Assembly (NCBI GenBank): GCA_964291395.2
Contig: OZ219856.1
Span: 1,856,001-1,920,000, forward strand
Length of the DNA stretch: 64,000 bases
Origin: Alphaproteobacteria bacterium
Lineage (GTDB): Bacteria > Pseudomonadota > Alphaproteobacteria > UBA2966
Reading direction: 5' to 3'
Made by a program: the position numbers and the translations under genes. Each line of letters begins with the position of its first letter. Position 1 is the first letter of the stretch. The notes below the pieces were generated by a model that had not been told where the DNA came from, did no database searches, and saw nothing but the letters and a program-made list of their open reading frames with translations. This document shows, piece after piece, positions 14,072 through 34,068 of the stretch.

Positions 14072-14174
14072 CTATGTGCCTTGACGAATGGTCCGCCTTC
14101 TCTCGAGGGCTGCAATTTCTTGACAATTTGCAAGTATAACTTTCAATATCACAAATTGCAAGTTACTATGCGCT

Positions 14175-15356
14175 ATGATCGACCGTGAGATCGCACCCTG
14201 CCTGGTCGCATTGTTCGAGCAATACCCGTTCGTCACCGTGACCGGGCCACGACAGTCGGGCAAGACCACGCTCTGCCGCGCCGCCTTCCCGCATCTCGAC
14301 TATGTCAATCTGGAAGCGCCCGATCAGCGGGAATTCGCGGAGTCCGATCCGAGGGGGTTTCTTGCGCGTTTCCGCGAAGGAGCCATCCTGGATGAAATCC
14401 AGCGCGTCCCCGATCTCTTGTCCTACCTGCAGGTTCTGGCGGACGAGGCGGGGCGGAACGGCCTCTTCGTTCTGACCGGGAGCGAGCAGTTCCGGCTCTC
14501 CGACGCCATAAGCCAGTCGCTAGCCGGACGCACCGCGTTGCTTCGTCTGCTGCCATTCTCGCTTGTCGAACGCCGGCGAACCGGTGCGAGCGACAGCATC
14601 GACGACATCCTCTATTCCGGCTTCTATCCCCGGATTCACGACCGGAAACTCGAGCCCCGGCAGGCGCTTGGCGACTATTTCGAGACCTATGTCGAGCGCG
14701 ACGTGCGCAGGATCGGCGAGATCCGGAACCTCGCAAACTTCCGCAGGTTTGTCCGCCTGTGCGCCGGTCGTGTGGGGCAACTGGCCAACCTGTCGTCCCT
14801 TGGCGCGGATGCCGGGGTGTCCCACACCACGGCAAGCCATTGGCTCACGGTTCTGGAGGCAAGCTATGTCGTGTTCCGGCTCCCGCCGTTTCACGCCAAT
14901 ATCCGCAAGCGGCTGGTCAAGTCGCCGAAGCTCTACTTCTACGACGTCGGGCTGGCGAGCCACCTAATCGGCATCGAACATGCCGGACAGATCGGCACCC
15001 ACCCGCTTCGCGGGCCGCTGTTCGAGAATGCCGTCGTGGTAGAGGCGCTCAAACACCGCTTCAATCGGGGCCGCCGACCCAACCTGTCCTTTTTCCGGGA
15101 CAGCCGTGGTCTCGAGTGCGATCTGCTGTACGAGAACGGCCACGGCATGGCGGCCATGGAGATCAAGTCAGGTGCGACGGTCGCTTCCGACTGGTTCGAT
15201 TCGCTCAACCGGGTGGCGAAAGAGCTGCCGGAGATCGCCACCAAGGCTGTTGTCTATGGAGGTGCGGAACGACAATCTCGGCGGGACGGAGAGGTGGTTC
15301 CTCTGACTGACCTGTGCGAAATGCTTGAGCGACTCGAAGATCGGAAGGAATCCTGA
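14175..15356 (+). CDS. AAA_14 ATPase with DUF4143 C-terminal domain
   Basis: TGPRQSGKTT, ILDEIQR, LTGS, KSPKLYFYDVGL, ECDLL...EIKS. Confidence 0.9.
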   Translation: MIDREIAPCLVALFEQYPFVTVTGPRQSGKTTLCRAAFPHLDYVNLEAPDQREFAESDPRGFLARFREGAILDEIQRVPDLLSYLQVLADEAGRNGLFVLTGSEQFRLSDAISQSLAGRTALLRLLPFSLVERRRTGASDSIDDILYSGFYPRIHDRKLEPRQALGDYFETYVERDVRRIGEIRNLANFRRFVRLCAGRVGQLANLSSLGADAGVSHTTASHWLTVLEASYVVFRLPPFHANIRKRLVKSPKLYFYDVGLASHLIGIEHAGQIGTHPLRGPLFENAVVVEALKHRFNRGRRPNLSFFRDSRGLECDLLYENGHGMAAMEIKSGATVASDWFDSLNRVAKELPEIATKAVVYGGAERQSRRDGEVVPLTDLCEMLERLEDRKES

Positions 15357-15498
15357 TGGGCGCAATTTGTAAAGCATCGCTCCACAGGAGGCGGGTTTGC
15401 TCCGGGGTCTGTGCCGATTCATGGTCAGACGCGCCGGAAGATTGGCCGACGATCATGCGAACGCAGTCTACGTGGACCGCTTGCGCCGAGAGCTTGTG

Positions 15499-15730
15499 AT
15501 GGACGTATTCGATCTCGATGAAGCCGTCATCGATCGCTACAAAGCGTTCGCGCGCTCGTTCACCGATATCCGCTCACCGGAGTTGAGCGCCAAGGTCGAC
15601 GAACTGTATGCCACCAGGCATTTCTGGCCGGAGCCGCTGATCCAGCTGAATCTGCACTACGCCGACGGCGGCTCGATACAGGATTTCATCGACGCAGGCG
15701 ATCTGGAACCGGAATGCGTCGAGGTGTTTC
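15499..15730 (+). pseudogene. N-terminal fragment of a large DEAD/DEAH (DUF1998-type) helicase
   Basis: MDVFDLDEAVIDRYKAFARSFTDIR...FWPEPLIQLN...GG.I; similarity ends before Walker A. Confidence 0.6.
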
Positions 15731-15978
15731 GGGGCGTGCCGGATTCTGCGGCGGGACGGCATGCTGACGGTCAACGACTACCACCCGTTTCGCAGGATCT
15801 GGCGGCAATCCCCTCCATCGATGTTCAACATCGATCAACACCCATCAGTTTCGCCACGAACAATACCTCCCAATTCCTGCAAATTGTGTGGGTAGGAATG
15901 TTGGGACAAAGTGAGTTGTAAGAAAAATTTTATATGTGATTCAAAGGTGTAGTGATCAGTATCGGCATCGCATCGCTG

Positions 15979-16294
15979 CGGCTTCGGGCGCTACGCCGAT
16001 CATGGCGCCTGGCTGGCCGGCCAGGGCCACGCGATCAGCCCGGCCGCGCTCCAGCGCTACGGGAGGCGGCTTCGGGACGGCGTCGAGCGCGACCGCGCGG
16101 GAGCGCGCGAGGCCGCGGCGGCCATGACGGCGCGCATCCGCCGGAGCAACGAGATGGCGCGGGCAATCGACGAGGCCACGGACGACGACCCCCTGGCCTT
16201 GCCGGCCCGAACGTCGGGGGGTGTCGGAAGCCCCGGACCTCGCGCGGTCACCGTTCGACGCCGCACGACACCCATCGCGCCGGCGGCGGGCGTC
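15979..16294 (+). repeat. Internally deleted second copy of the DUF3486 locus
   Basis: 15979-16205 matches 13115-13341 (227 bp, 1 mismatch seen); 16208-16294 resembles 13717-13808. Confidence 0.92.
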
Positions 16295-16429
16295 ACAGAG
16301 GACAAGTCCCCGGCCTCCGACAGGGCGTTCGTGAGAATTTGCGGGAGACAGGCGGGGCCACGTTCGCCGAAATGGCCGCAGGCGGTCGCCCACGCGAGGA
16401 GACCGCCCAAAAAGGCTTCGCGAGGGGGC

Positions 16430-17469
16430 AACATCGGCACCACATGCTCCCAAGCGCGCCGCCAGGCCGGCGCGACCGCCAGGTAGCGCTCACCCCAGCC
16501 GGCCTCGAACTCATCGAGCCTGGCCGCCGCCTCGGCCGTCTCGGCGCGGTAGATCGCCCGCAGGTCGGGCATGACCTTCTTGCGGTCCTTCCAGGAGACG
16601 AAGGCCAGAGAGTTGCGGATCAGATGCACGATGCAGGTCTGAACCGCGGTCTGCGGGAACACCGCGGCGATCGCGTCGGGGAAGCCGGTCAGCCCGTCGA
16701 CCACCGCGATCAGAATGTCGCCGACGCCGCGGGTCTGCAGCTCGTTCATCACCTTGAGCCAGAACTTGGCGCCCTCGGTCTGCTCGATCCACAGCCCCAG
16801 CACCTCCTTCTCGCCCTGACAGGTGATCCCCAGCGCCAGATACACCGCCTTGTTGCGGACCAACCCCACGTCGCGGATCTTGACCCGGAGCGCATCGAAG
16901 AACACCACCGGATAGACCGCATCCAGAGGCCGGTTCTGCCACTCGCGGACCTCCTCGAGCACCGCGTCGGTCACCCGGCTGATCAGGTCCGGCGATACGT
17001 CAACCCTGTAGAGATCCTACAGGTGTCCCTGGATCTCGCGCACCGTCATGCCGCGCGCATAGAGCGATAGGATGCGGTCGTCGAAGCCGTCGAGACGGCG
17101 CTCGCCCTTCGGCACGATCGCCGGCTCGAAGCTGCCGTTGCGGTCGCGCGGAACCGCCAGCTCGACCGCGCCGTCCTCGGTCAGAACCTTCTGGCCCGAA
17201 TGGCCGTTGCGGCTGTTGCCCGTGCCGCGGCCCGCCGGGTCGCCCTTCTCGTAGCCCAGGTGATCGGTCAGCTCGGCGCCAAGCGCACGCTCCAGAAGCG
17301 CCTTCTTCAGCTGCTTGAAAAGCCCCTCATCGCCCAACAGGTCCTCCGGCGTCTCATAATCGGCCAGTAGCTCGTCCAAAAGTTCGGGTCTCAGTGTCGT
17401 CATCGCAGGTCCTCCCCTACAAGATATAGGACCCACAGCAGTCACCTACACAAGATATCGGACAGTCTC
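16430..17469 (-). mobile_element. IS256-family element, defective (in-frame TAG at 17017-17019, 3' truncated)
   Basis: LERALGAELTDHLGYEK, VPRDRNGSFEP, VFFDALRVKIR, DGLTGF, QTCIVHLIRNS; terminal IR GAGACTGTCCGATATCTTGTGT at 17469-17448; CDS starts 17403. Confidence 0.92.
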
Positions 17470-18007
17470 TGGCCAGCCCATGTTCCCTCCTATGCCTCAG
17501 ATGCTTGCGCCACCGTTCGACGCGAGATATTTCTGTTTCCTTGAGCCAAACACAGGTGACGCCCGCCCATGGGTCACAACGGGAAACAGACGATCAAGGT
17601 ACGCCTCGCAAAGGCAATCCCTGACATCTGCTTACCCCCTCTCCCTGCTCCAGGATTATCGCACCAGCTTTCCGCCCCTCAACTGGACCCACGCTCTCAC
17701 GACCGCCACGATCGTTCATGGGCACAGCCGGAGGCTTCCATTGTTTTGACTATCACACCTCAACGACAACGTGTCGGAGCATCTCGCGTGTCAAGCCGAC
17801 AGCTACCTTCACAGGGTTCGAACGAAGAGCCTTGTGATCCGCGAGTCCGTGTCGGAGGTTGGAGTGAGCGTCACCAGCATCGAGAAGGGGTAACACGCGA
17901 TACCTTGGCTTGGTCAACAAATTCTCTTCCTCTCAGCCAGAGCCCCATTTCACCTCCTTTGCCAGGACCGTACTGGAGCCAAGTAAGTACACCCGACAGC
18001 ATCCGGC

Positions 18008-19975
18008 GTGGAGGACCAAAGCATTAGTACACCACTTCCATGCTCTGATGGATTGCGGCAACTAACGATTCCCGCCACGCTCGACACTTCTACCCACGAT
18101 GTCGCCGAGGTCTTATACAATCCAGCGTTGAGTGTCTCAGTCGCTTATGATCGTGGCGTTGGTTTCTTCTCTTCTGCCTGGCTACGTCATGTGGGAAAGG
18201 GACTCACTCCATTTGCGGACCGCGGAGGACGCATGCGTTTGATTACGAGTCCGAAGCTGCGCGCACAAGATTGGGCCGCTATCAAAATGGGTGAGGATGC
18301 ACGAAATAATCCCCTTATACTGTCATCTCTTCTAGCTGAAATCGATGACTTGCGGAGCTTTTCCAGAGAGCGACCGGTTCAACTTCTTGCCTGGATGGTC
18401 GCTGATGGGCTATTAGACATTCGTATCGCCGTGCCAACATCAAAGCTTGATGGCGACTTTCACCCCAAATTGGGCATCTTTACTGATCCCGCAGGAAATT
18501 CCATAGTCTTTCATGGTTCGCAGAACGAAACGGACCAGGGTTTTCGCAATTATGAAACGCTTGATATCTATACCAGTTGGACCGACGATAGAGACGCTCA
18601 ACGGTGTGCATATCACCAAACCCTATTCGAGCGCATTTGGGATCAACGTGATGCTAACGTCCTTTGTTTCACCCTACCCTCGGCAATTCGCCGGAGGCTT
18701 GTTAGTTTCGTCGAACAGGGAAAGCGTCCTTTCTCTTCTCCGTTTGACGCACGAACGACAAGTGATAACAGATGGCAACACCAAGCAAGAGCGATTGAAG
18801 TCTTTCTTGATAAGCGTTGTGGCGTTTTGGAAATGGCTACAGGAACGGGTAAGACCCGAGTAGCTCTGGATATTCATGACCAGTTGACGGCTCGAAACAT
18901 GGTCTCAACCACGGTCGTCAACATGTACGGCACAGATCTTCTCAATCAATGGTATCGGGCTCTTATTACAAGAGTAGATCTACCGGTGTACCGGCAATAC
19001 GGAGCACACAAAGAAGCTTCAGCTTTTTTTTCCTGTCGAACACCCCGCATCCTGCTAGCGGCACGTCAGCAGCTAGCCGCAATATTACCGCACATGGACA
19101 ACGATACGGTTAAAGGCGGCCTGCTTATTTGCGACGAAGTGCATGGTCTCGGTTCGCCCGCTCTAATCCGAGATCTGAGTGGTCAGTTTCGACGTTTCCG
19201 ATTTCGTCTGGGTCTCAGTGCTACGCCGGAACGCGAGTACGATGAGATAGGAAACTCTTTTATTGAAGAGGAAATCGGCCCGGTCATTTTTGAGTTCTCG
19301 CTTGAAGATGCGATTCGAAACGGTGTTCTTTGCGAGTTTGATTATGAGCCATTGGCCTATGCGTTGTCTGACGAGGATCGGCACGCAATACGCAACGCCA
19401 TCAAGCGCCACTATGCCCGGCGTGCTCAAGGAGAGCTGAGTTCCGAAGAAGCGCTTTATCGCGAGATTGCATTTGTCCGAAAGACGACTGAACAAAAGCT
19501 ACTTCCCTTTAAGCTGTTTTTGAGTCAGAAAGGATCGGGACTATCACGTTCTCTAATCTTCGTAGAAACCGCGGAGTTTGGACTCAAGATACAACCACTA
19601 TTGATGCATTACCGTATCCCATTTCATACCTATTATCAGTCGGAAGATAGGATAAATCTTCAGCGCTTTGCAGATGGTGAACTAGATTGCCTCATCAGTT
19701 GCCATCGACTTTCTGAAGGCATTGACATTAGATCTGTGAGTAGTATCGTTTTGTTTGCCTCGTCTCGAGCACGTCTAGAAACTATACAGCGTCTCGGACG
19801 ATGTTTGCGAACCGATCCTGACAACCCGAATAAGAGAGCCCTCGTCGTTGACTTCGTGGATTTTGAATCAGAGACGGATGAACCCGACTCTTCACATCTT
19901 TCCGCTGATTTGGTTAGATACGAGTGGTTTCGGAAGTTATCAACGGTTCGTGGTTTGAATAACGCGGTACAGTGA
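18008..19975 (+). CDS. pbeA: PLD-nuclease + SF2 helicase, PbeA-like phosphorothioation-associated restriction protein
   Basis: GVGFFSS; PLD FHPKLGIFTD...GSQNET; Walker A MATGTGKT; DEVH; SATPER; LSEGIDI; QRLGRCLR; context next to dnd. Confidence 0.75.
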   Translation: MEDQSISTPLPCSDGLRQLTIPATLDTSTHDVAEVLYNPALSVSVAYDRGVGFFSSAWLRHVGKGLTPFADRGGRMRLITSPKLRAQDWAAIKMGEDARNNPLILSSLLAEIDDLRSFSRERPVQLLAWMVADGLLDIRIAVPTSKLDGDFHPKLGIFTDPAGNSIVFHGSQNETDQGFRNYETLDIYTSWTDDRDAQRCAYHQTLFERIWDQRDANVLCFTLPSAIRRRLVSFVEQGKRPFSSPFDARTTSDNRWQHQARAIEVFLDKRCGVLEMATGTGKTRVALDIHDQLTARNMVSTTVVNMYGTDLLNQWYRALITRVDLPVYRQYGAHKEASAFFSCRTPRILLAARQQLAAILPHMDNDTVKGGLLICDEVHGLGSPALIRDLSGQFRRFRFRLGLSATPEREYDEIGNSFIEEEIGPVIFEFSLEDAIRNGVLCEFDYEPLAYALSDEDRHAIRNAIKRHYARRAQGELSSEEALYREIAFVRKTTEQKLLPFKLFLSQKGSGLSRSLIFVETAEFGLKIQPLLMHYRIPFHTYYQSEDRINLQRFADGELDCLISCHRLSEGIDIRSVSSIVLFASSRARLETIQRLGRCLRTDPDNPNKRALVVDFVDFESETDEPDSSHLSADLVRYEWFRKLSTVRGLNNAVQ

Positions 19976-19979
19976 GTAC

Positions 19980-20186
19980 TTGTCTATGAATGAAAATATG
20001 TCACTTGATCAATCTATCTATGAAGCGATAGAGAACACGATATCGCCTTTCGAGAGTGAAGCGCCGAGGTTTGCGAGGAAGTTTAGAAGGCGGCTAGAAC
20101 TTAAGCTCACTGGTCGCCTGCTTCAGTCAGATCTCTTGGACCTTATTGAAGAGGTGCCGGTTGAGTTGCAGGAGCCAGGAAGTTGA
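19980..20186 (+). CDS. pbeB: Small protein between helicase and CxC ATPase, PbeB-like
   Basis: 68 aa; 4 nt after the pbeA stop, stop overlaps the ATPase start; assignment by position and size. Confidence 0.6.
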   Translation: MSMNENMSLDQSIYEAIENTISPFESEAPRFARKFRRRLELKLTGRLLQSDLLDLIEEVPVELQEPGS

Positions 20187-22114
20187 AGATTGAGTTGACA
20201 GGGTGGCGAGCTTGCAATCTGCGGGGATATCTGCGCCAGGCAGACATCAGGCTTGGACCGCCTACCGCTACTTGGACCCTTCTTCAGATGCCGAACGGCA
20301 CTGGTAAAACCACCACGATGAATTTGTTACGAGCTGCCTTTTCGGGGCGTCCGCTCAACGCGGAAACAATTAGATCTCTGAAGGCCGATGATATTGTCGG
20401 AGATGGCTACTTTGAGATGTCGCTTGTCGTTGACGACTCTCCGTGGCGAGTAGAAATGGAGTTCGACTTTCGTCGGGAACAGTGCAGGTTCTTTACTACC
20501 TCTCCTGCGGAACAGTCCGGAGGGCGTCGAACGGTGCATAGCATGCCCGGAATATTGGGTGATACTCTTCGCAGGGGCCTCACAGAGCTATTCATCTTTA
20601 ATGGCGAACTTGCGGCAGAAATAATTAAATTGGGGCAAAATAGGGCTGATGCTGCGATCCGCTCTCTTTATCAGCTTGATCGGCTCTCGGACCTGAATGA
20701 AGAAATCAAACAATTGGCGCGAAAGCGCCAAGCGAGGGCTGGTGCTACGAGCGCGGCAAGCAAACATGCCATCAGGAGATTTGCTACGGATGTTGAGGAG
20801 GCAGAAACTATATTGGAAGAACTTGAGGCCAAAGAACGTACATTGACTAAGCAAATACGTGGGTGTGATGAAAGAATCAAGAACATAGAGGAAGAAATAG
20901 AGGATAAGGAAGAGCAAAGTGACGAGTATGCAGACCAGATGCGGGAAGTTAACGCAGAAATTGGCTCGCTTGAAGACCTTGTCACACGCCTGGGTTCATC
21001 GGCTTTGCAGACTTTCCGGGTCCCACCGCTCCTTCATGCTGTTCTGAGAGAGCGTCTGGCTTCATTGGGAGGGCGATTGAGTAAACTGCGCCTGCCAAGG
21101 ACTATGTCCGAAGAATTCTTTCTACAACTCGCAGAAGCTGCTGATTGCATTTGCGATCGCCCACTGGGCCCGACGGAACAAGCTGCCATTAGGCGCAATG
21201 CAACAGATTTCCTGGGACAAGATGAGGTGGCTGTAATCAATCAAATGAAACTCGCGTTACGTGATACCAGCGACATGCCCGTACGCTTTGAGGAACTGGC
21301 GGAACAGCTGCGCACGGCTCAGCAGGACTTGCAAAGCCAAGAGCAGCGTAAGCGACGACTTCATGTACAAATGAGCGAGGCGGGAACAGAAGACTTCACG
21401 GACCTGCAGAACGAAAGGGACAAGCTCAAGCGAACGCGTGAGCGAGCAGCCGACGCGCTATATCAGCTCACTCATGTTGACGGTTCGCCGGGTAGTCTGA
21501 ATTGGAGAGCGAACATTCCGTTGTGCCGGATTGAACTGAAGGATCGGGAGCGTAAGCATGAAACGGCTACGGGGACCCATGACTTCATGCAACGTACAGC
21601 GCACCTGCGCAATCTCGTGGCTTCTGTGGAGCGCGATTCTCTGCGTCGCTTAAGGCGAAGGATACAAACGGATACTAACGCAACGTTGGAGAGGATTTTA
21701 CCAAACGAACAACTGCGCATTTCCGCAATTGATGGGAGCCTTCGCCTTGAAACACCCGAAGTAGCGGAAAAGACGGGCGTGAGCGAGGGTCAGAAGCTTG
21801 CGGTGGCATATGCGTTCCTCACCTCACTATTAGCCAGGGCACCGTACGAACTGCCCTTCGTCGTTGATTCTCCAGCTGTCTCGCTGGATGTCGAGATACG
21901 TCGAACAGTGGCTCAGTTCATCCCAGATCTTTTCGAACAAATGATTATGTTTGTTATATCGAGCGAGCGAGATGGATTCGTGGACGGCTTTTATGAGCGG
22001 CAGGATGCTCGTTTCCTGACCGTGGCCTTATCACAGGCCGGGGGCGAGACCGAACTTCGGGAGGGAATCGATGCCTTCAAAGCCTTTCAAAGCTTGGAAG
22101 ATACTAGGTTATGA
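20183..22114 (+). CDS. pbeC: SMC/Rad50-like ABC ATPase with CxC hook, PbeC-like
   Basis: Walker A MPNGTGKTT, IFNGE, coiled coils, CICDRPL, signature VSEGQK, Walker B FVVDSP. Confidence 0.72.
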   Translation: MKIELTGWRACNLRGYLRQADIRLGPPTATWTLLQMPNGTGKTTTMNLLRAAFSGRPLNAETIRSLKADDIVGDGYFEMSLVVDDSPWRVEMEFDFRREQCRFFTTSPAEQSGGRRTVHSMPGILGDTLRRGLTELFIFNGELAAEIIKLGQNRADAAIRSLYQLDRLSDLNEEIKQLARKRQARAGATSAASKHAIRRFATDVEEAETILEELEAKERTLTKQIRGCDERIKNIEEEIEDKEEQSDEYADQMREVNAEIGSLEDLVTRLGSSALQTFRVPPLLHAVLRERLASLGGRLSKLRLPRTMSEEFFLQLAEAADCICDRPLGPTEQAAIRRNATDFLGQDEVAVINQMKLALRDTSDMPVRFEELAEQLRTAQQDLQSQEQRKRRLHVQMSEAGTEDFTDLQNERDKLKRTRERAADALYQLTHVDGSPGSLNWRANIPLCRIELKDRERKHETATGTHDFMQRTAHLRNLVASVERDSLRRLRRRIQTDTNATLERILPNEQLRISAIDGSLRLETPEVAEKTGVSEGQKLAVAYAFLTSLLARAPYELPFVVDSPAVSLDVEIRRTVAQFIPDLFEQMIMFVISSERDGFVDGFYERQDARFLTVALSQAGGETELREGIDAFKAFQSLEDTRL

Positions 22115-22611
22115 GTTTCGTAGTTCACTGTGACCTACGCGAATATTTCGGGTTTCGCGGTGGTCGAGCCTTCGCGGCCACCGGTATACCAGAAGAAGGT
22201 CCTAGACAGTTTCTGCTGTTTGATGCTTTCTACGCCTGCTTACTTCTTGGTTTAGCAAGGGAGACGTTGGGAAAGGAGGAAGTATTGGAAGGTGATCCCT
22301 TTGTTGTAGGCTATCCAGAAGACTTTAGACAATCCCGTGAGTTCATCGCTGGCTTAATAGTAGAGACCGAATTGAGGAGATTGGATACAGAGTACTATAG
22401 TGAAAGAGATTTCGAGCGCGAAATTGCTAAACTTTTGGATTTGAACGAGCCCACGCGGCTGAGCAGTTCCACGGGCATAACTTGCGCCAATCTTTACGCA
22501 GCGGGTGGTTTTGAATATATGCGGGATGCGTTACAGCCCAAACCCACAAGCGTCGAGGACTTTCTATTGCGCTATCATGACTTGTGGTCAAACGACGCGC
22601 GATCAGAGTAA
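22111..22611 (+). CDS. pbeD: Small protein, PbeD-like
   Basis: ATGA overlap with the ATPase; FDAFYACLLLGL...YPEDF...NLYAAGGFEY; assignment by position. Confidence 0.6.
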   Translation: MSFVVHCDLREYFGFRGGRAFAATGIPEEGPRQFLLFDAFYACLLLGLARETLGKEEVLEGDPFVVGYPEDFRQSREFIAGLIVETELRRLDTEYYSERDFEREIAKLLDLNEPTRLSSSTGITCANLYAAGGFEYMRDALQPKPTSVEDFLLRYHDLWSNDARSE

Positions 22612-24461
22612 TGGACGTCGCGACACGATATCGGGATAGCGTTTTGTGCCTACGCACCGCGCCAACGACGTTATCGGGACTGCTCGGCGGTTTTGGAACT
22701 TTGGCAGTTCCTCCTTTTCAACGCGCTTATGCGTGGGAAGAGGCTCAAGTGTCTGCGTTTCTTTCGGATATCGAGCGCTGCCGTCTAGCACGATTAGGCG
22801 GTGACAGCACCCCACATTACTTCGGTGCGATTGTGTCTAGCTTGTCAGCCGTACCCGGTTCATCCCGCCCGCATAAGATACTTATCGACGGACAGCAGAG
22901 GCTAGCAACGTTATACATGTTGATTGTGCACCTGAGGCGTCGGTTTGAACAAGCGTCAAAGTTGGCGGCGGCTGAGAAAGACGGAGAACGTGAAAGAGTC
23001 CTGGAAGCGAGAGCCATTGGGTTGTTACATCAATTTGAGATAACTCGAGATGTTGAGTTTACTGATCCAAAAACCGTTCGAAAGTTAAGTCTGAGTAATG
23101 CCGACAATGCATTCTTTGTAGCGTTGACGACAGGAGAGAATTGTAGTCCCGATCGGGTTTCGCATGAGCGTTTGAAGACAGCTTTTGAGATGATTGGGGA
23201 TCACTTTAATAGGCTGTTGGAACGTGCAACGGACTCGGGAGGACATCTGCGATCATTGGAACCGCTTTATCAAGCCTTCATACGAGATTGGTCTGTCGTT
23301 CACTTGGCTGTCGATGATCGACGACATGCCAATCTAATTTTCCGAGTTCTAAATACGCGCGGCATTCGCATCACAGAGGGTGAACTGTTGCGCTCCCGCA
23401 CTCTAGAGGCAGCGGCGCCGCAGCTCGAAGCGGCCAAGGTATCTGCGATGTCGGACGCGTGGGACAGTATATTGATCGGTGAGCCGATCGTGGCGGATGA
23501 AGCGCTGGGCATGGTTTTTCAAGCTCGCTATGGTCGCAAGCCGTCAGTGGGTAAGATGGACTCGGACTACGAGACGGAATGTTTCCCGGCCGTCTTGGAG
23601 ACCGAAGGCCTAACCAAGACGGAAGCAGAGAATCTGCATCGAGCCGTCCTTGTTCTGCGGGAAGATATGCGTGCTCTGGCACGGTTAGGCTCCGGCTATC
23701 CGCCCTTCGAGGATGCAAACACAATTGATGCCGTCAGTCGCTCACGCTTACACGCATTGATCACAATCTTAAAGCAGAGCTACTGCTTACCTCTGTTACT
23801 CGCAGGACGATCCCTGAACCCCAACTCATTCGCAAGTCTTTGCGATGTGGTCGAACGATTTGCGTTTAGGTATTCTGTTATTGCCCGGGCTCCGATCTAT
23901 CCGGTGGATGCTATTTTTTCGGAACACGCTATCCTGCTCAGCAATGAGCCAGGCACCTTCAAGCTCGGAAAACTCGTTGAAGATCTACAAGGCCTGCTAG
24001 ACGACTTTGCGAATGATGAGCATTTTGCACAATGCCTACGATCGCTGAGGTACGGCCAAAACTTGAATCCGGCTATCCGATATCTTCTTATACTTCTCGA
24101 ACAAATGCATGCATGGTGGAAGAACAACCCACAGGGAAAGCCAGTCTGCCGCGATCCGACGAGGATACTCGATTTTGTCACAATGACAATTGAGCATGTC
24201 CAGTCTCCAAAGGAACCTGGTTTGGACCCGGACCTGATTCCCTTCATTGACACGCTGGGCAATCTTACTGTGCTGAGTAGTGGTCAGAACGACGCTCAGG
24301 GGAACAAAGCGTTTGCCGAAAAGAAACCGATTTTAGAAGATTCAAATCTCGGAATGAATAGAGAATTAGCGGAGAATGATGTTTGGTCGATTGAAACGAT
24401 ACAGGCCCGAACAGACGAACTTGTTAGAATGTGCCTAGCGGTCTTCACACTGACACGATAA
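22611..24461 (+). CDS. DUF262 + DUF1524 (HNH) protein, GmrSD/SspE-like
   Basis: VPPFQRAYAW, YFGAIV, LIDGQQRLATL, IFRVLNTRG; C-terminal TIEHVQSP...LGNLTVL...N...GNKAFAEKK; TAATG coupling to the previous gene. Confidence 0.88.
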   Translation: MDVATRYRDSVLCLRTAPTTLSGLLGGFGTLAVPPFQRAYAWEEAQVSAFLSDIERCRLARLGGDSTPHYFGAIVSSLSAVPGSSRPHKILIDGQQRLATLYMLIVHLRRRFEQASKLAAAEKDGERERVLEARAIGLLHQFEITRDVEFTDPKTVRKLSLSNADNAFFVALTTGENCSPDRVSHERLKTAFEMIGDHFNRLLERATDSGGHLRSLEPLYQAFIRDWSVVHLAVDDRRHANLIFRVLNTRGIRITEGELLRSRTLEAAAPQLEAAKVSAMSDAWDSILIGEPIVADEALGMVFQARYGRKPSVGKMDSDYETECFPAVLETEGLTKTEAENLHRAVLVLREDMRALARLGSGYPPFEDANTIDAVSRSRLHALITILKQSYCLPLLLAGRSLNPNSFASLCDVVERFAFRYSVIARAPIYPVDAIFSEHAILLSNEPGTFKLGKLVEDLQGLLDDFANDEHFAQCLRSLRYGQNLNPAIRYLLILLEQMHAWWKNNPQGKPVCRDPTRILDFVTMTIEHVQSPKEPGLDPDLIPFIDTLGNLTVLSSGQNDAQGNKAFAEKKPILEDSNLGMNRELAENDVWSIETIQARTDELVRMCLAVFTLTR

Positions 24462-24475
24462 CCGGAAAGTGCCTA

Positions 24476-25645
24476 TCAGTCGCCTAAAGCACCACTACGG
24501 AGCTGTTCCACCGCTTTGGCGAAGGCCCCAGCCACAAAGTCGACATCCGCATCCTCAGTGTATCGCCCCAACCCTAGCCGAAAGGCCTCCCGTGCCCTGG
24601 GCTGATCTCCGAACATCGCCTTAAGGACATGCGAGGTCTCAACTTTTTCAGTCGAACAGGCGCTTGACGCAGAGAATACAACCTGATTGCGCAGAAAATG
24701 CATGAGGGCGAGCGGTTCTATTCCGCTGATGGAGATCGACGTTGTATTAGGTAATCGGCATATGCGATCACCATTGATACGGGATCCCGAAATTCCTAGA
24801 AGTGTCTCCTCTAATCTATTTCGACGGAACGCAATCGCGGCAGCATCTGTGGTTCGGCGCGCCTTAACAAGAGCAAATGCCTTTCCAAGTCCAACAATTC
24901 CGTGGGTATTGAGTGTTCCTGATCGCAAACCCCTTTCCTGGCCACCACCATAGATGAGTGATTGCATATTCACTCGCGGTTTTCGTAGTCTGACGTATAA
25001 AGCTCCTACACCTTTTGGGCCGTACATCTTGTGCCCGGAAAAACTAGCGAGGTGTATATTCTCCAAGCCCACATTAATTGCGATATATGCGGTTGCTTGA
25101 GAAAAGTCTGTATGGAACAACGTGCCTGAATTTGCACAGATTGCACCAATTTCTCCAATTGGCTGTAAAGTTCCTGTCTCATTATTCGCAGCCATAACAG
25201 ACACCAGCCCCGTGTGTTCTGTCACCACTTCTCGAACATCTGAAAGGGCGACTCTGCAGTCCTTATCGACAGGCAAAATGGTAATCCTGGCTCCTTCATC
25301 TTTTAGGGAATTGACTGTCTCGAGTATAGAGGGGTGTTCGATTGCAGTCGTAACGACGTGGGGTCGTCCAGCCCGGCGCAGGGCTGGAAATGCTCCGCGG
25401 ATGGCAAGATTATTGGATTCGGTTGCACCACTCGTAAAGATTACCTCCTGCTGCCTACAGTGAATCAGAGTTGCTACCTCTCTCCGTGCTTGTTCTATTG
25501 CTGATTGTGCTTGATATCCGGCAATATGTTCGACACTGGAGGGATTGGCCGAATGTAAACGCATTGAGCAGCCGGTCGCCTCAATAACGCTCTCGTCCAC
25601 AGGCGTTGAGGCATTATGGTCGAGATAGATGGGTTGTGCCGTCAC
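24476..25645 (-). CDS. dndA: Cysteine desulfurase, DndA
   Basis: IYLDHNASTP, FTSGATESNN, SGHKMYGPKGVG, SASSACS; coupled to dndE. Confidence 0.88.
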   Translation of the reverse strand: MTAQPIYLDHNASTPVDESVIEATGCSMRLHSANPSSVEHIAGYQAQSAIEQARREVATLIHCRQQEVIFTSGATESNNLAIRGAFPALRRAGRPHVVTTAIEHPSILETVNSLKDEGARITILPVDKDCRVALSDVREVVTEHTGLVSVMAANNETGTLQPIGEIGAICANSGTLFHTDFSQATAYIAINVGLENIHLASFSGHKMYGPKGVGALYVRLRKPRVNMQSLIYGGGQERGLRSGTLNTHGIVGLGKAFALVKARRTTDAAAIAFRRNRLEETLLGISGSRINGDRICRLPNTTSISISGIEPLALMHFLRNQVVFSASSACSTEKVETSHVLKAMFGDQPRAREAFRLGLGRYTEDADVDFVAGAFAKAVEQLRSGALGD

Positions 25646-26019
25646 GTTACTTCGTTTCCCGCTAGCAAACGTGCAGCATCCGCCGGCGTTTTGATCCGGG
25701 TCGAGAGCTGACGAACACCGCGGTCAATATGACATCGTAGGCGATTTAAGAGTTCAGTTTCATCGAGGACTTCCCCATTTGGCGCTTCAACCAACCGCAA
25801 TAGGGAAGTGTAAATGGGCTGATCAACACCAAAAAGTGTGTACGCATTGAATTCCTGGCCGTCCTCAAGGGCACTTCCAACGGGACCAACGGTACCCTCG
25901 TGTAAAGAGGTTGCGATCGCCATGCGACAGATGAGATTTGGCGTGAGCCCGGCGCGCTGGCGCAACACCCTCAAGCGGTTGGTAGCTTCGGCAGAAATTC
26001 GGAATTTGCTAATGTGCAT
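25642..26019 (-). CDS. dndE: DNA sulfur modification protein DndE
   Basis: FRISAEATNRLRVLRQRAGLTPNLICRMAIATSL...EFNAYTLFG...HIDRG. Confidence 0.85.
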   Translation of the reverse strand: MHISKFRISAEATNRLRVLRQRAGLTPNLICRMAIATSLHEGTVGPVGSALEDGQEFNAYTLFGVDQPIYTSLLRLVEAPNGEVLDETELLNRLRCHIDRGVRQLSTRIKTPADAARLLAGNEVT

Positions 26020-27961
26020 GCGGGATACCACTGCCGATGGTCGTCGCGTGAGGTCGGGCTACAGTCTGGCGCGTCCCCTCAGAGACACTAAGCTCAAAGC
26101 GACGCGCGACATAGGGTAGTATAATAGCCTCCAAGTCCTCGGTAAGTTCAGAGTCGGTACAGAGCAAAATGACCTGATGACTTGCAGCAGGAACATATTG
26201 CTCAACGATTGCACGGCGATGAGAGCGATCCAGGTGGGATAGGGGCGTATCTATAATGACTGGAAGCTCTCGACCACTGCTTTTCGCCAAAGCCCAGAGC
26301 ATTGAAATTGCGAAGATTTGTCGCTCGCCGGCGGAGAGTGACTCTTTCAATACACTCTTTCCGTGATCATCAATAAGTGCAATTGCAAAGCTTTCCCGAT
26401 CTACCTCCACTCTTGATACAAAGTGCTTCTTTCTTATGAGTACGTTGAAGCACTCCGCGAAATGGCTTGAGAGGGTTTCCAATCTTTGTTCCAGCACTTG
26501 GCATTCATAATCTGCAAGAGCCCGTTGCGCTCGGGTAGCTAAATCAAGCTGACGTTCTTGGTAGTTCCGGCGTAGGAGGGCGTCGCGAGCGTTATTGTGC
26601 TCCTTTTCAAGGACTTGAACTTGGAAACGAAGTCGATCAATTTCTGATGTCAGGGTTCGTAGTGTTGTTTCCACAACTCCGAGATCATACTCTGCCGATT
26701 TCAATGCCTCCAGCGCTTCCGTGGCAGCATTGGTGTCTAGTGAAGATTGTTGTGCCTTTAGTCTATCGCGCTCCTGAAGAGCCTCGTCCAAATGATCTCC
26801 AACGCTCAATGCGCCCAACCGCAGTTGCACATCTACTTGGCTTAGACGATCTGCGATCCAAGCAGGTTCAGCGTCGAACGTGAATTCTGGTTCCTTTGTC
26901 TGTTCATTCAAGAATTGATGCATTGCCCTAAAGTGCTCCTTGGTCCAGGCAGGCTCCCTCTGTGGACCGTTGAGTCTCGCCTTTTCGAAAGCCGCCAAGA
27001 AGGACATAACGGCCCTTTGTGAGCTGCGTGACACTTCATCTGTTGTCAAGTTCCGCAGTCGTATGAGTAAGGAGGGAGCCATGCCGAGGGGCAGCACGCC
27101 ATTCGCTAGTCGCTTCAGTTCGCTGTACAGGCTCTCAATCCGCTTTTCACTAGCAGCTCTTGCCTTTAGAAGCGCGTCCCGATCGATCGCGAGGGTTCCT
27201 CCTTCTTGCTGAAAAGCCCTCTGGGCTCTTTCGATGCGCCGGGCCACTTGATCGCGTGAGCTCCGCAAGTCCGCGGCCTTGTCTTCTCTAAGCGCGAGCT
27301 CTTCCCTTTTTGCTTTCAAATCACGCTCGATCGATTCAAAATCAATATCGCCGCCGTCTTCATCAACACGGCTGACGTAAAGCGCCAAGTCGTTGCGTAG
27401 TTGTTCAACCAAATCGAGTCCCAGAACAGACCGAACTGATTCCCGGAAACCAGCCGCTTCGGTGCTATCTGCAATATCTCGTACCTTATCTCCATCAAAG
27501 AAAAAAAGTTGCGACACTCCCGTTGGAATCAGATCCTCAACATAGTGCTCCCAGTCTTCGCGTGGGATATTTTCGACTTCTTGACCGTCACAGATCAGCT
27601 GCAAGGAATCTATCACAGTTGCACCGTGCGCTGCCCAGGTTCGGGTTACCTCATAAAGTTGTTGCTTCCCTCCCTCGCGAAGCGAGAACGCCAAACTCAC
27701 CGAGGCTTGTCGCATGGGTGCAAATGAGTAAATCTTCTCCAACAAATACTTCTCATATTGCAGCCGTGATACCCTAGGTCCCAGAGCGCGTCTACCGTAA
27801 AGTACCAGTCTCACAGCTTCTAAGAAGGTTGTTTTGCCACTTCCATTGTGACCCCCAATGACAATTACATGCCTATCTCCCGCCGGTTCCGGTTGGAGTT
27901 GAAATATATTGGTGCCGCCATATAGGCCGAAATTTTCGAGCTGAAGACGTTGCAAAATCAC
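26009..27961 (-). CDS. dndD: DNA sulfur modification protein DndD (SMC-like ATPase)
   Basis: LENFGLYGG, GHNGSGKTTFLEAVRLVLYG, LFFFDGDK, LSAGERQIFA, PVIIDTPL, ASHQVILLCTDSE. Confidence 0.92.
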   Translation of the reverse strand: MILQRLQLENFGLYGGTNIFQLQPEPAGDRHVIVIGGHNGSGKTTFLEAVRLVLYGRRALGPRVSRLQYEKYLLEKIYSFAPMRQASVSLAFSLREGGKQQLYEVTRTWAAHGATVIDSLQLICDGQEVENIPREDWEHYVEDLIPTGVSQLFFFDGDKVRDIADSTEAAGFRESVRSVLGLDLVEQLRNDLALYVSRVDEDGGDIDFESIERDLKAKREELALREDKAADLRSSRDQVARRIERAQRAFQQEGGTLAIDRDALLKARAASEKRIESLYSELKRLANGVLPLGMAPSLLIRLRNLTTDEVSRSSQRAVMSFLAAFEKARLNGPQREPAWTKEHFRAMHQFLNEQTKEPEFTFDAEPAWIADRLSQVDVQLRLGALSVGDHLDEALQERDRLKAQQSSLDTNAATEALEALKSAEYDLGVVETTLRTLTSEIDRLRFQVQVLEKEHNNARDALLRRNYQERQLDLATRAQRALADYECQVLEQRLETLSSHFAECFNVLIRKKHFVSRVEVDRESFAIALIDDHGKSVLKESLSAGERQIFAISMLWALAKSSGRELPVIIDTPLSHLDRSHRRAIVEQYVPAASHQVILLCTDSELTEDLEAIILPYVARRFELSVSEGTRQTVARPHATTIGSGIPHAH

Positions 27962-29425
27962 GTCTTCTCTCCTTGGACTGGATTGACTGATCCAACGGAC
28001 GCTAAGCTCGCCGTCTCGCGCTCCTTCAAAACTTCCTCTATGCTACGCCATTCCTTTTCCATGACCGCAGCAATACGTTTGTGAACTGTCGCTCGTCGCT
28101 TTAGGCCACGTACCGAGCGTTCTACATCCAAGAGTTCGGCGAGCAACTCTAATTGATACTTCGTGCTTGTCACACACTGACCGCAACAAGACTCCGTCCT
28201 CGTGCGAAAATTGGTAGCCATCATCTTCTTCCACTGTTAATTTACGTCTAAGCACCTCTGATACAATAAGACTTACGCTATCTGACCAGTCGCCCTTCTC
28301 TGTACGCCACAGTCTCCGTATCTCTCTGAGTTCTTCGTCCTGAATGAGAATTATCTTCTCACCCGGTGGAGCATCGCTAGAGATTCTCAGCTGAGCTTCA
28401 AGAAGTTTACGCAAGAATGCCTTGCGATATTCAAGTGTGTACGGTCCAGGTATAGGATCGGAGCGACTTTCGACAAAGGTTACTTTGCCACTGCGTCGCC
28501 GAAACTCTCTCACCGTGGTCTTCCTCTTTGGATCCTGGGTCGAAGCCAATTCATCTCGGAGCTCGAGTAGCGGCTCAAGCCACTCCTCTCCATTATCAAT
28601 TAGGGCTTCCATGGCCCTGTCCCTTGAAACAACGGTGCAAACCCAGCATCCGAATCGAGAGTTCCCGCAACTTTCCGTGTGCTTGTCTACTACAAGCGGA
28701 CACTCCCCTGCTTGCGCGTTCCTATAAAGGGCAAGGAGCTGGCGGTTGTCGACGCCCCAGGGTGATGGCACTTGCAGAAGATAGGTCCATACGTCATCGA
28801 TTGTGAAGGACTCAATGGGAGTGTACACATAGGCGCCTTGAAGGGTGGAATGCCGCGACAGCGGGGAACCCGATATTCGATGAAGCGCCATCACTTGTGC
28901 ACGCGTCGCGCTTTCTGCCTTACGTACCCCTAGCACCATGACAACTTCACCATATTCTGCTACCGTATTCTTAATGAAGGCATTCGCTGGATCGATTTTT
29001 AAGCGCTCAGTGCACCAGCGGAAGCGTTTTGACGGAGCCGGATATCCCCTTCCGATCAAATTTACCCAAAAGCTATTCTCCACCTCGGGAACCACCTTCT
29101 GGGCAGAGATGGGCATGCCCTGTTTGCGGGCGGCATCATTTATTGCTATGAGTGCATTATCGATATAATTGACAATGACGGGAGTCTCGACAAGTGTGTC
29201 GGAACTCAACACATAAATTGGCTTCTTATAATCCGCCTTAGAAAGTGACGCAATCGCGTTCCAGATTAACTGCAAAGCACATGTTGAGTCTTTTCCGCCG
29301 CTGTACCCAATTACCCATGGCCGCTCGTCCGCTTGATAAACGCGTCGGATCTCCTGCTCTAAGTCGCTAACAGAACGAGTAGCCTCATAGGGCTCGTTGT
29401 TCTGGTCAAACAAATCCTGCATCAC
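27958..29425 (-). CDS. dndC: DndC sulfurtransferase; apparent single-base frameshift near 28152
   Basis: PWVIGYSGGKDS, DTLVE, FRWCTERLKI, ECPL, SCGNSRFGCWVCTVV; the DndC-like tail ELLAELLDVERS..RRA lies in another frame ending at 27958, overlapping the dndD GTG. Confidence 0.9.
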
Positions 29426-30543
29426 TCCGCTTCCTCCATGGCACGGTCGTCCGTAGTAATTCTTATCAAACTGTCTTCGGCCACCTTCCCGCGTTCATCG
29501 AGTGGCAAACCGATTGCTCGAAAGAGGACATTAGCGCCCAGAAGTACAGCCCGGCGTTGACCGTTCATCCTCACACCATTCATGACACGTCCCTCCCAAA
29601 GTCCAGAGTTTCGACGTGACCAATCGATTCGTGCAAGTGCTGTAAGGTCTTGTTTCCACTGGGTGGGACGACACTCAAGCAATTTACCACCAAGCACGCC
29701 AAATGCTTGAAGCATAACTCCATGGGCATGTACCGTGTTTTGACGAAGGTCACAGGCTGAATGCGCGCCAGCTTCAAGTCGCCTCCAATCCTCCATGACA
29801 TCGTAGAGCGCTGTCCAATATGTCCTGACGGCATTCTCTGTATCGTCCCCGAAGCGATCCGCCGCCGAACCTACCATCCACTCATGGGCCTGATTGAGGC
29901 TTGACAGAGTGTACAGTTTAGTAGTGCGGTTGGAGAGAGATACCTTTTCAAGTTCGACGAAACTTCTAAAAAATGGCACTTGCTCCAATACACGGGATGA
30001 CAATCGAGATAACGGGCTACGATGATCGAAAAGTACATTGAGAGACCCGGACGGACGAATAGCATTCTTGTTGAGGTCAGCAAACATCTGTTGGCTACGC
30101 TTCAATCCGCGATCAGCAAATACGACAACAGAAATCGTTTCGTTTTCTAGTTCAGGGCGTATCTTAAGTGCTTCCCCAATTGCAGCCATTCGGTGCTGGC
30201 CGTCATTGAGAACAATGCGCGCTTCCATCGGTATGGTTAGGGTTCCTACATTCCGCAATGCAGAATCTTCACCAGCTGAGTGAAAGTCGAGATCCCCATC
30301 GACTGACGCACAGAGAGATGACAGAATGTAGTCTTCCCAATTCGTTGCAAGATAGGCCGCAATCTGCGGCACACGGGCCTTGGATAACACCCGCTGTGCT
30401 CGCATATCGGCTGGTAAGTCTTCATTATCAAAAACGAAAATCCGCTGGACCAATTTCAGCGGAATCATCACAGTGAAATACGCCGTTCGTGCCTGCACCC
30501 CACGAATGGCTGAGAAGCTGTAGGTATTTCCATGCACGCCCAC
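29422..30543 (-). CDS. dndB: DndB DGQHR-domain regulator
   Basis: AIRGVQA, RAQRVLSKARVPQIAAY, NDGQHR, SQQMFADLN, LFDHR. Confidence 0.92.
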   Translation of the reverse strand: MGVHGNTYSFSAIRGVQARTAYFTVMIPLKLVQRIFVFDNEDLPADMRAQRVLSKARVPQIAAYLATNWEDYILSSLCASVDGDLDFHSAGEDSALRNVGTLTIPMEARIVLNDGQHRMAAIGEALKIRPELENETISVVVFADRGLKRSQQMFADLNKNAIRPSGSLNVLFDHRSPLSRLSSRVLEQVPFFRSFVELEKVSLSNRTTKLYTLSSLNQAHEWMVGSAADRFGDDTENAVRTYWTALYDVMEDWRRLEAGAHSACDLRQNTVHAHGVMLQAFGVLGGKLLECRPTQWKQDLTALARIDWSRRNSGLWEGRVMNGVRMNGQRRAVLLGANVLFRAIGLPLDERGKVAEDSLIRITTDDRAMEEAE

Positions 30544-30938
30544 ACCTCCAAGTGAGTGTGGAAGTTTATGGAAGTTGGCAGGGAAGTCAAGAGAAATCTG
30601 GGGCAGGTGTTGCTAATATCGCGTGGTGCCCGCCACGCAAGGCGACGCCTTGGGATATTGCCACTCCCAATTCAGGTCGTTCAGTTCCAACCCGCCTGGC
30701 CCGTCACTTGTCGATTCGCAGCAGAGTTGACATCTGAAAGCGCCTCCCGACCTTATGGACACCATCCGTATGTCCAGCATGTGACCTGTGAAACAGCTTG
30801 CAATCCCACCCAGTGGGCATACATTGCCGTTCAAGAGAACCCATCGGACTGCCGCCCAGAAAGGGAGATACGGGGTCCGATTACTACGACCCCAGGGACG
30901 CCTCGTGCGTCCCTGTATTTTTTGCGGTGTGACGCGAT

Positions 30939-31267
30939 ATGCCCGCTGACGCCCCGGTTCAAGCCCCCGTCATCGAGTGCGTGTGTTCGTCGACTTCTGG
31001 AACTACAAGCTTTCCATGCGGGACGCCGACGCGGCGTTCCGCACGGACCGGGCGAAGCTCGGGCCGGTGCTCGCGCTCGCCGCGGCTGCGGTCGTCGATG
31101 TCGCTACCCCCTCGGACCTCGACCTGCCCGGATACCGGCTTCACCCGCTGAAGGGGTATTGGAGCATCTCGATATCCGGCAACCGGCGGTTGATCTTCCG
31201 TTTCGAGGAGGGCGATGCCTACGACGCCCACCCGGTCGACCACCACCAGCGAGAGACCGCGCCATGA
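30939..31267 (+). pseudogene. Chimeric remnant: NYN-domain N-terminus fused to HigB toxin C-terminus
   Basis: RVFVDFWNY... (NYN-like) joined at VVD/DVA to [39 protein letters not shown] (HigB-like). Confidence 0.65.
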
Positions 31268-31539
31268 CGATGAGCAATCCCCCGCATCCCGGACGAAGCA
31301 TCCGGGAGAACTGCCTCGATCCGCTCGACCTGAGCGTCTCCGAGGCGGCAAGGGTGCTGGGCGTCGCCCGTCACACCCTCTCGCGGGTGCTGAACGGCCA
31401 CGCGGCCATCTCCCCGGAGATGGCCATTCGGCTGGAGAAGGCCGGCTGGTCCAGTGCGGAGTTCTGGCTGCGCCGCCCTGACGGACGAAGAGGCCGCGCG
31501 CATCGAAGGCATTTACCGGGACGTGTTCGCCAACGATGA
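31264..31539 (+). pseudogene. higA: HigA antitoxin, C-terminally truncated
   Basis: [55 protein letters not shown]...EFWLR, then unrelated tail. Confidence 0.8.
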
Positions 31540-31710
31540 ACGTGCGTAACCGAACCAGGCCCTGTCATAGCGTCCAAGAAGGCCCGCTTCACGGCATGGC
31601 ATGGCGGAAACAGCCCGTGAGCGGGCTTGCCCCTCCGGGCGTCGCATAGGGGTAAGAGCCGTGCCGGGGCTCCACCGGGCCACGTCGCCGGCGCCCACGC
31701 CCGGGCATTG

Positions 31711-34065: not shown

Positions 34066-34068
34066 CGC

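Follow-up and report, generated by a model that had tools for sequence, protein, structure and literature searches.

A stretch of 64,000 nucleotides (nt) from an Alphaproteobacteria bacterium (UBA2966; assembly GCA_964291395.2, contig OZ219856.1), hereafter the window, whose numbering is used for all positions, carries a gene for a two-domain DUF262-DUF1524 protein at the end of a pbe-like operon. What kind of enzyme does this gene encode, and what could be its role behind a set of genes for phosphorothioate (PT)-dependent restriction? In the first-pass annotation of the window, it was considered the best candidate for a new system, in which an SspE/GmrSD-like nuclease would be the translationally coupled fifth gene of the operon. 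Sequence comparisons indicate that the protein is a member of the DndI/Orf5 family and, for this reason, the pbeABCD-dndI set is not a new system; it is a recurrent arrangement that departs only modestly from the PT-based defences already known. By analogy with DndI of Salmonella, the enzyme would probably be a second, separate PT-dependent effector riding on the pbeABCD transcript. The earlier interpretation stands in one part, a putative PT-reading nuclease coupled to pbe, and falls in the other, its novelty as a system.

The gene, called here dndI-like, and the codons of its catalytic motifs are located as follows:

22611..24461, + strand: dndI-like gene, 616 amino acids (aa), DUF262 NTPase plus DUF1524 HNH domain (predicted nickase), ATG at 22611-22613
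22887..22901, + strand: codons of the NTPase motif D93-G-Q-Q-R97, in which R97 corresponds to R87 of DndI
24192..24290, + strand: HNH core E528-H529 ... N551 ... N560, in which N560 corresponds to N541 of DndI (residue alignment to 9JFL)

There is an alternative in-frame GTG start at 22584; the form present in the sequence database is the 616-aa one that starts with ATG. The pairing of a DGQQR-containing DUF262 domain with DUF1524, already read from motifs in the first-pass annotation, is borne out by Pfam, since GmrSD_N (DUF262) matches residues 31-263 (E = 2.9e-25) and GmrSD_C (DUF1524) matches residues 468-606 (E = 9.3e-16). The top PADLOC family is Orf5 (PDLC02695; 2.1e-163, 543 bits), which aligns residues 18-612 with model positions 7-601 of 601. 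Lower PADLOC matches are HEC-06, a single-gene candidate (176 bits, 2.6e-52), SspE (56.6 bits, 3.9e-16, residues 30-142 only) and the GmrSD-type model mREase_IV (49.5 bits, 5.8e-14, partial). With 56.6 and 49.5 bits versus the 543 bits of Orf5, SspE and GmrSD are more distant relatives of the protein, which the first-pass annotation had called SspE/GmrSD-like.

Comparison with all PDB chains gives a similar picture. The closest chain is DndI (9JFL; E = 5.9e-55, 189.9 bits), collinear over residues 31-613 versus 20-594, and SspE is matched at E = 1.6e-6 (29.9 bits) over residues 16-117 only. A profile built from 31 close homologues (profile A1) scores 405.6 bits with 9JFL versus 81.6 bits with SspE. 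Among the PDB matches with E <= 0.001 there is none named GmrSD or BrxU, either with the single sequence or with the profile, a negative that presupposes such chains in the PDB copy used.

A scan with profile A1, covering one genome per species, gave 532 relatives, the best 80 of which were kept; a single-protein query of contigs found none. In a maximum likelihood tree of 81 rows (the window protein and these 80; IQ-TREE quick search, LG+G4), the window protein and relatives L001-L020 form a clade of 21 with an SH-like approximate likelihood ratio test (SH-aLRT) value of 100, and eight proteobacterial rows form an inner clade (support 99). The phmmer scores of the relatives against the window protein form two widely separated groups, the PT-linked L001-L020 (180-546 bits) and all 60 others (<= 100.6 bits), and the 189.9 bits of 9JFL are within the range of the first. 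The model PDLC02695 matches members of the clade at 1e-185 to 1e-216, a fit so good that the database curators had evidently gathered these proteins already. In annotation, such genes belong under DndI/Orf5-type and not under GmrSD or SspE.

The residues required for catalysis are well conserved. The DGQQR motif is present in 21/21 clade rows and in 60/60 of the other rows, and D93-R97 is invariant in profile A1. In Salmonella DndI, the substitution R87A, within D83GQQR87, abolishes ATPase activity, and N541A leads to the loss of nicking and defence; alanine mutants at the two positions thus lose ATPase or nickase activity, plus defence (PMC11662687). H529, N551 and N560 are found in all 21 clade rows and in nearly all of the remaining ones. 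In the first-pass annotation, nuclease activity was said to need testing because the HNH motif reads EHVQSP rather than EHxxP. However, the proline column is occupied by P in 15, A in five and S in one of the 21 clade rows, so that it is not a conserved catalytic feature and the concern is resolved. With respect to sensing, P34, F36 and Q37 align with P23, Y25 and Q26 of DndI, P34 and Q37 being conserved.

The family itself was known before. ORF5 was drawn in 2010 by Xu et al. in the dpt cluster of Salmonella Cerro 87, where it is dispensable for dptFGH restriction (PMC2978375). This DUF262 plus DUF1524 protein, also modelled in PADLOC, was renamed DndI and characterised in 2024, including the crystal structure 9JFL (PMC11662687). 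DndI is a PT-sensing ATPase and HNH nickase, in which a patch around Tyr25 is responsible for the ATPase response to PT; it spares PT-marked self DNA, nicks unmarked DNA and is toxic to cells without PT (PMC11662687). DndI forms a homodimer, and its nicking, unlike its ATPase, is PT-independent. Although dndI is co-transcribed with dndFGH, it provides anti-phage defence with IscS-DndBCDE alone, and 61 genomes carry dndBCD and dndI without dndFGH (PMC11662687); these genomes may include cases of pbe-linked dndI. SspE is also a PT-sensing NTPase-nickase (PMC11662687, PMC10952713), but while SspE is activated by PT, DndI is restrained by it (PMC11662687). The GmrSD/BrxU enzymes target modified cytosines, alone or together with BREX (PMC12707154, PMC10952713). 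Given the DndI family, the idea of the first-pass annotation that the window protein reads Dnd-type PT marks would be right.

The gene neighbourhoods of the relatives were identified by tblastn with the window proteins and by PADLOC on called open reading frames (ORFs). Ten of the 21 clade rows (window, L001-L005, L012, L020, L013 and L014) have pbeA-(B)-C-small ORF-dndI in this order and all in one orientation. They belong to the window, Thalassospira, Sphingomonas, Methylobrevis, a Sphingomonadaceae metagenome-assembled genome (MAG), Pseudomonas fluorescens, Rhizobium, Sulfitobacter, Amycolatopsis and an Ardenticatenaceae MAG, so the same order recurs in Pseudomonadota (Alpha- and Gammaproteobacteria), Actinomycetota and Chloroflexota. 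In six other rows (L008, L009, L011, L017-L019) the pbe genes are adjacent in another order or orientation, two rows (L006, L010) have dnd genes only, and neither pbe nor dnd was seen in the remaining three (L007, on a 7.7-kb contig, L015 and L016). A rare linkage to pbe or dnd, named in the first-pass annotation as a point that would speak against its reading, is not what is seen: pbe is found beside 16 of the 21 and pbe or dnd beside 18. Outside the clade, dnd genes are present in only one of 60 rows (L079).

The junction between pbeD and dndI is also maintained. The stop of the former and the start of the latter overlap in seven of eight close loci, by 1 nt (window, L012), 4 nt (L001, L005, L020) or 8 nt (L003, L004), the eighth locus (L002) having a gap of 36 nt. 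The repetition of the gene order in other genomes and the overlap kept in 7/8 loci indicate that the linkage is more than chance. In metagenome contigs, 14 of 80 loci score above 150 bits; pbe is directly upstream in five of these 14, pbeA is elsewhere in the flank in two, four have dnd only and three have none (contigs of 4.9-6.2 kb). A record of Methylobacterium bullatum has a layout identical to that of the window. In a 400-genome sample of the class of L005, the sole further match (G1022, 190 bits) has no defence neighbours on its 10-kb contig.

In the window, the dndI-like gene is the last of five + strand ORFs, and it faces five dnd genes on the opposite strand:

18008..19975, + strand: pbeA, 655 aa, phospholipase D (PLD; HKD) nuclease fused to a superfamily 2 (SF2) helicase; PADLOC PbeA PDLC02703, 4.7e-193, residues 17-625
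19980..20186, + strand: pbeB-like gene, 68 aa, small and acidic, TTG start, 4-nt overlap with the pbeC start
20183..22114, + strand: pbeC, 643 aa; PADLOC PbeC 2.8e-25 (weak), weaker DndD matches; Pfam AAA_23 and SMC_N
22111..22611, + strand: pbeD-like fourth gene, 166 aa, 4-nt overlap with the pbeC stop, stop TAA at 22609-22611
24476..25645, - strand: dndA, cysteine desulfurase; PADLOC DndA 2.6e-133, Pfam Aminotran_5
25642..26031, - strand: dndE; PADLOC 1e-43, Pfam DndE 3.5e-21
26009..27961, - strand: dndD; PADLOC 1.1e-180
28043..29425, - strand: dndC; PADLOC 1.5e-188
29422..30543, - strand: dndB; PADLOC 1.9e-132, Pfam DndB 1.3e-114

The five ORFs are nearly unspaced, with successive junctions of a 4-nt gap, two 4-nt overlaps and a 1-nt overlap. 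The last one is the sequence TAATG (22609-22613), as stated in the first-pass annotation, in which the ATG of the dndI-like gene starts on the last base of the pbeD-like stop. The complete dndBCDEA cluster is convergent with the dndI-like gene, the dndA stop being 14 bp from the dndI stop. The island composition proposed earlier was also confirmed: GC content is 48.7-51.8% in the 2-kb windows of 18001-30000 and mostly 63-75% in the flanks (59% in 14001-16000). This low-GC block of 12.5 kb is one acquired island, and the dndI-like gene shares its composition. Between 17000 and 25000, promoter-like and terminator-like sequences were no more frequent than chance predicts, six of the former being found versus 6.2 expected and five of the latter versus 8.1.

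The assignment of the individual pbe genes is of unequal strength. PbeA carries the Pfam domains ResIII, DEAD and Helicase_C and a weak PLDc_2. The gap between pbeA and pbeC contains a pbeB-like ORF of 61-86 aa in 10/10 loci examined. The PbeC translation contains C-I-C, that is, the C-x-C motif, which defines the PbeC-type ABC-ATPase clade (PMC10853773). The fourth gene is called PbeD by position, size and conservation only: its product is 40-60% identical to its counterparts in seven loci (L001-L005, L012 and L020), and it has no match in Pfam, PADLOC or PDB. In the prototype, PbeB has 66 aa and PbeD 152 aa (PMC6459918). PbeD is regarded as the cognate of DndE. A recognisable similarity of the PbeD-like protein to DndE was rejected, since hhalign gave probabilities of 0.56% and 0.35% and a PDB profile search also failed. 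As for other PT chemistries, no Ssp model was the best PADLOC match of any neighbour; the cysteine desulfurase scores about equally with DndA and SspA. The models dnd_assoc_1/2/3 (TIGR03236-8), which we take to be DptF, DptG and DptH, have no match in the genome of the window (98.1% complete), and, since the control genomes also gave no match, this negative says no more than 'not found'.

The first-pass annotation had placed the gene outside the described pbeABCD, and in agreement with this the terms orf5, DUF262 and DUF1524 have zero occurrences in the main text of the 2019 pbe paper (PMC6459918). In the part of the literature on CxC/Pbe systems that deals with their partners, the latter are HKD-SF2 proteins, a small protein, methylases and MTaX1, and other nucleases are given for Dnd neighbourhoods (PMC10853773); no ParB-HNH protein figures among these partners or nucleases in that text (PMC10853773). 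The DndI paper mentions Pbe once, in its introduction (PMC11662687). The main texts searched contain no description of a linkage between pbe and dndI.

The linkage looks different when one starts from pbe. PDLC02703, which is one of the five models that PADLOC has for PbeA, was run on two evenly drawn sets of 400 genomes each, the first from the phylum and the second from the class of the window. Besides the genome of the window, 14 full-length pbeA loci were found in 12 genomes. A DndI-like gene ends one of these loci (L084) and SspE ends another (L091), the other 12 having no DUF262 gene within the 11-17 kb examined. That only one of 14 pbeA loci has DndI indicates that the fifth gene is optional for pbe operons. 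In the phylum sample, a full-length protein of the clade type occurs in two of 400 other genomes, G084 and G119, and in G119 it faces dndDCB without pbe. The dndI-like gene is, therefore, an optional, minority add-on to pbe operons, while viewed from dndI it is mostly found with pbe.

In L091 (5998-16872; G413:C1), pbeA and pbeC are followed by a 156-aa ORF and, after 61 nt, by a 770-aa SspE (PADLOC 2.4e-304) that faces SspC. The arrangement resembles a pbe operon with an Ssp-type PT reader as its last gene, parallel to the DndI of the window. Another PLD-plus-DUF262 pairing is present in G127 (C89:5378-7807), where an ORF of 1264 aa, PbeA-like in its N-terminal PLD region, stands beside an ORF of 665 aa that has DUF262 at its N-terminus and the same orientation.

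The locus was also compared with known systems. The window protein resembles Salmonella DndI in its DUF262 DGQQR plus DUF1524 HNH composition, in its size (616 aa versus 596 residues in the 9JFL chain), in having the R87 and N541 equivalents, and in being encoded beside a Dnd-type PT cluster, at the end of an operon for PT-dependent restriction. However, its operon partner is pbeABCD instead of dndFGH, the PT-sensing Tyr25 is replaced by Phe36, and the proline of 'EHxxP' is shifted by one residue. Moreover, dndA is in the cluster, whereas Salmonella uses IscS (PMC11662687). SspE (6JIV/7DRS) shares the two-domain plan, and the region of PxYQRxYxW and DGQQR can be aligned, but SspE has 771 aa and a different C-terminal half, and there are no ssp genes here. 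With GmrSD, BrxU and HEC-06 the protein has in common the Pfam domains GmrSD_N and GmrSD_C and the design of an NTP-regulated HNH nuclease, although the window gene is in a separate PT-linked clade and the scores are weak. As for the operon, the DndCDEA-PbeABCD of Haloterrigena jeotgali, a CxC ABC-ATPase system, also comprises pbeA, pbeB, a pbeC of the CxC type and a fourth gene, arranged alike near dnd; it differs from the window in that the latter has a fifth gene and dndB, and a fourth gene without a PbeD/DndE match. The dndFGHI operon of Salmonella, with two effectors on one transcript, likewise has a DUF262-type tail gene on a PT-dependent operon facing dnd genes, but in the window the leading effector is Pbe.

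The family to which the protein belongs, its intact catalytic residues and the complete dnd cluster at a distance of 14 bp all suggest a DndI-type enzyme. This enzyme would consist of an N-terminal ParB-like (DUF262) NTPase with DGQQR and a C-terminal DUF1524 HNH nickase and, if it works as Salmonella DndI does, it would bind DNA and nick DNA lacking PT. Host PT marks, written by the convergent dndBCDEA, would stimulate the NTPase and so release the enzyme, self DNA thereby being spared. We observed the family membership and the conservation of the catalytic residues, the gene order and the start/stop overlap; we infer a DndI mechanism for this locus, a common transcript of the five genes and independence of the enzyme from the Pbe proteins. 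The protein would then be made from the pbeABCD message, translationally coupled to pbeD, and could act beside Pbe as a second effector, as dndI with dndFGH in Salmonella. A second effector on a shared transcript is the simplest reading because Salmonella dndI is co-transcribed with dndFGH and works without dndFGH.

The mechanism is taken from the literature on Salmonella DndI and not from the window locus. Several points weigh against this reading. The identity to the characterised DndI is low (189.9 bits over ~580 aligned residues), and Salmonella DndI is placed by its scores and not by the tree, a further homologue search with profile A1 having given the same 31 proteins again, without Salmonella DndI. 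A profile of relatives that are not PT-linked (profile A2) also matches 9JFL well, at 251.4 bits, which indicates that 'DndI-like' grades into a broader stand-alone family. The equivalent of the PT-sensing Y25 is Phe36, in a column with Y in 18 and F in three of the 21 clade rows, and PT sensing could differ as a consequence. PADLOC scans of the regions around 22 clade loci gave no match to DndF, DndG or DndH, so the sole characterised context of DndI differs from the context here. Finally, tight translational coupling is expected for subunits of one complex, and this favours the view that the protein is a fifth subunit of Pbe.

According to that view, the dndI-like protein would be an integral part of Pbe, docked on PbeD or PbeC and providing the PT sensor and/or the nicking activity wanting in PbeABCD. 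PbeABCD requires PT for its action and causes no toxicity when PT is absent, consists of four genes in the archaeal prototype, produces no visible cutting of viral DNA, and its mode of PT sensing was not known to its describers (PMC6459918). This unexplained PT sensing, the overlap with pbeD kept in 7/8 loci, and the same gene order across Pseudomonadota, Actinomycetota and Chloroflexota would fit a subunit, as would L091, where the tail of the pbe operon is SspE, the other PT-sensing DUF262-DUF1524 enzyme. The presence of DndI in the window and SspE in L091 means that a PT-reader nickase occurs at pbe tails with both PT chemistries. In its broadest form, pbeABCD-dndI could be one five-part machine, in which the tail gene is the PT reader and nickase that explains PT sensing by Pbe and the reader is exchangeable (DndI with Dnd, SspE with Ssp as in L091), a proposal that we regard as unlikely. 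If it were true, ParB-like NTPase sensors would, more generally, dock at the tail position of operons for PT-dependent restriction. However, 12 of the 14 sampled pbeA loci lack a DUF262 gene (11-17 kb), the archaeal prototype is functional with four genes (PMC6459918), clade members also stand beside dnd without pbe (L006, L010, L096, L100, L103, L104, L106), and Salmonella DndI defends without its operon partners (PMC11662687). An integral fifth subunit is thus unlikely.

It could also be argued that a protein of the DndI family follows here the logic of SspE, being inert without PT and switched on by host PT. A co-transcribed partner of the same logic would be coherent with the PT-dependence and harmlessness without PT of PbeABCD, the Y25 equivalent differs (F36), and in L091 the corresponding position of the operon is taken by SspE. 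Nevertheless, the scores with DndI and SspE are 189.9 versus 29.9 bits with the sequence and 405.6 versus 81.6 bits with the profile, the SspE match is confined to the ~100 N-terminal residues, and the length of 616 aa is near that of DndI (596) and not that of SspE (771), all of which makes an SspE-like switch rather improbable. The proposal that the gene encodes a stand-alone type IV enzyme (GmrSD/BrxU/HEC-06-like) directed against hypermodified phage DNA, sharing with pbe and dnd the island but not the function, could draw on the Pfam names of both domains, which come from GmrSD, on the HEC-06 (2.6e-52) and mREase_IV (5.8e-14) matches, and on the abundance of 550-600-aa relatives that have neither dnd nor pbe beside them (59 of the 60 genome loci outside the clade, and 63 of the 80 loci from metagenomes). 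This proposal is very unlikely, since the window gene is in a clade apart from the stand-alone relatives (SH-aLRT 100) in which pbe or dnd genes flank 18 of the 21 rows, the junction with pbeD has kept its overlap, Orf5 scores 543 bits versus 176 bits for HEC-06, and no PDB chain named GmrSD or BrxU is matched at E <= 0.001, with the proviso on the PDB copy given above.

The preferred reading, a separate DndI-family effector carried by the pbe operon, is of interest because PbeABCD is the least understood PT-dependent defence. The sub-type with a conserved, pbeD-coupled dndI is a natural system in which to ask whether two PT effectors are additive, whether one backs the other or whether they cooperate physically, and the SspE of L091 offers a parallel case at the same operon slot. 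The significance would be greater only if the five genes proved to be one machine.

The tails of other PT restriction operons also contain ParB-like genes. In E. coli, dnd islands were found by dndC DNA similarity in 20 of 5426 genomes, and no DndI was present at the dptFGH tail in the two islands inspected, other ParB-like genes being found there. The dptH-dndE slot of E. coli B7A (L179:21684-32510) contains a 401-aa DUF262 protein and an 'ATP-dependent nuclease', and that of E. coli FORC_041 (L180:16662-26111) contains a DGQHR-domain protein and a hypothetical protein. At their tail, PT restriction operons seem to have a variable position that is filled by ParB-like NTPases.

Other arrangements were observed among the relatives. 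In three acidobacterial loci (L008:11779-12786, L009:11788-12714 and L016:11794-12714), a protein of ~310-335 aa is encoded after the dndI-like gene on the same strand; it matches PADLOC PDC-S02 (~1e-30) and mREase_IV (~1e-20). In three actinobacterial loci (L017:1119-8196, L018:2491-9562 and L019:5403-9744), a pbe-like operon on the opposite strand is divergent from the dndI-like gene. It opens with an unannotated gene of ~740 aa, after which comes pbeA, split into two ORFs in L019; L017 and L018 have, after pbeA, a pbeC/dndD-like gene and an ORF of 157 aa. Outside the clade, a DUF262-DUF1524 gene directly follows dndBCD(E) in Actinomadura (L079:3554-11653) and in two metagenome loci (L160 and L161:1542-9626). 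These proteins have 23% identity to that of the window (64-75 bits) and may represent a second, independent recruitment to Dnd.

The surroundings of the island in the window include several further genes. A tRNA-Arg (CCT) is located at 12122-12190, ~6 kb upstream of the low-GC island. Also upstream, at 14175-15356, there is an AAA_14 plus DUF4143 ATPase that matches the PADLOC candidate PDC-S01 (1.9e-94), followed by three ORFs without family match (15397-15921, 15952-17070 and 17569-18027). At the other edge of the island, a 327-aa protein (30556-31539), divergent from dndB, has a C-terminal HigA-type helix-turn-helix (TIGR02607, 1.7e-22, residues 239-306) and is possibly a regulator or an antitoxin. 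Beyond it, a 997-aa ORF (31627-34620) with no Pfam, PADLOC or NCBIfam match lies in a stretch of 75% GC and may be a high-GC artefact or an unknown gene.

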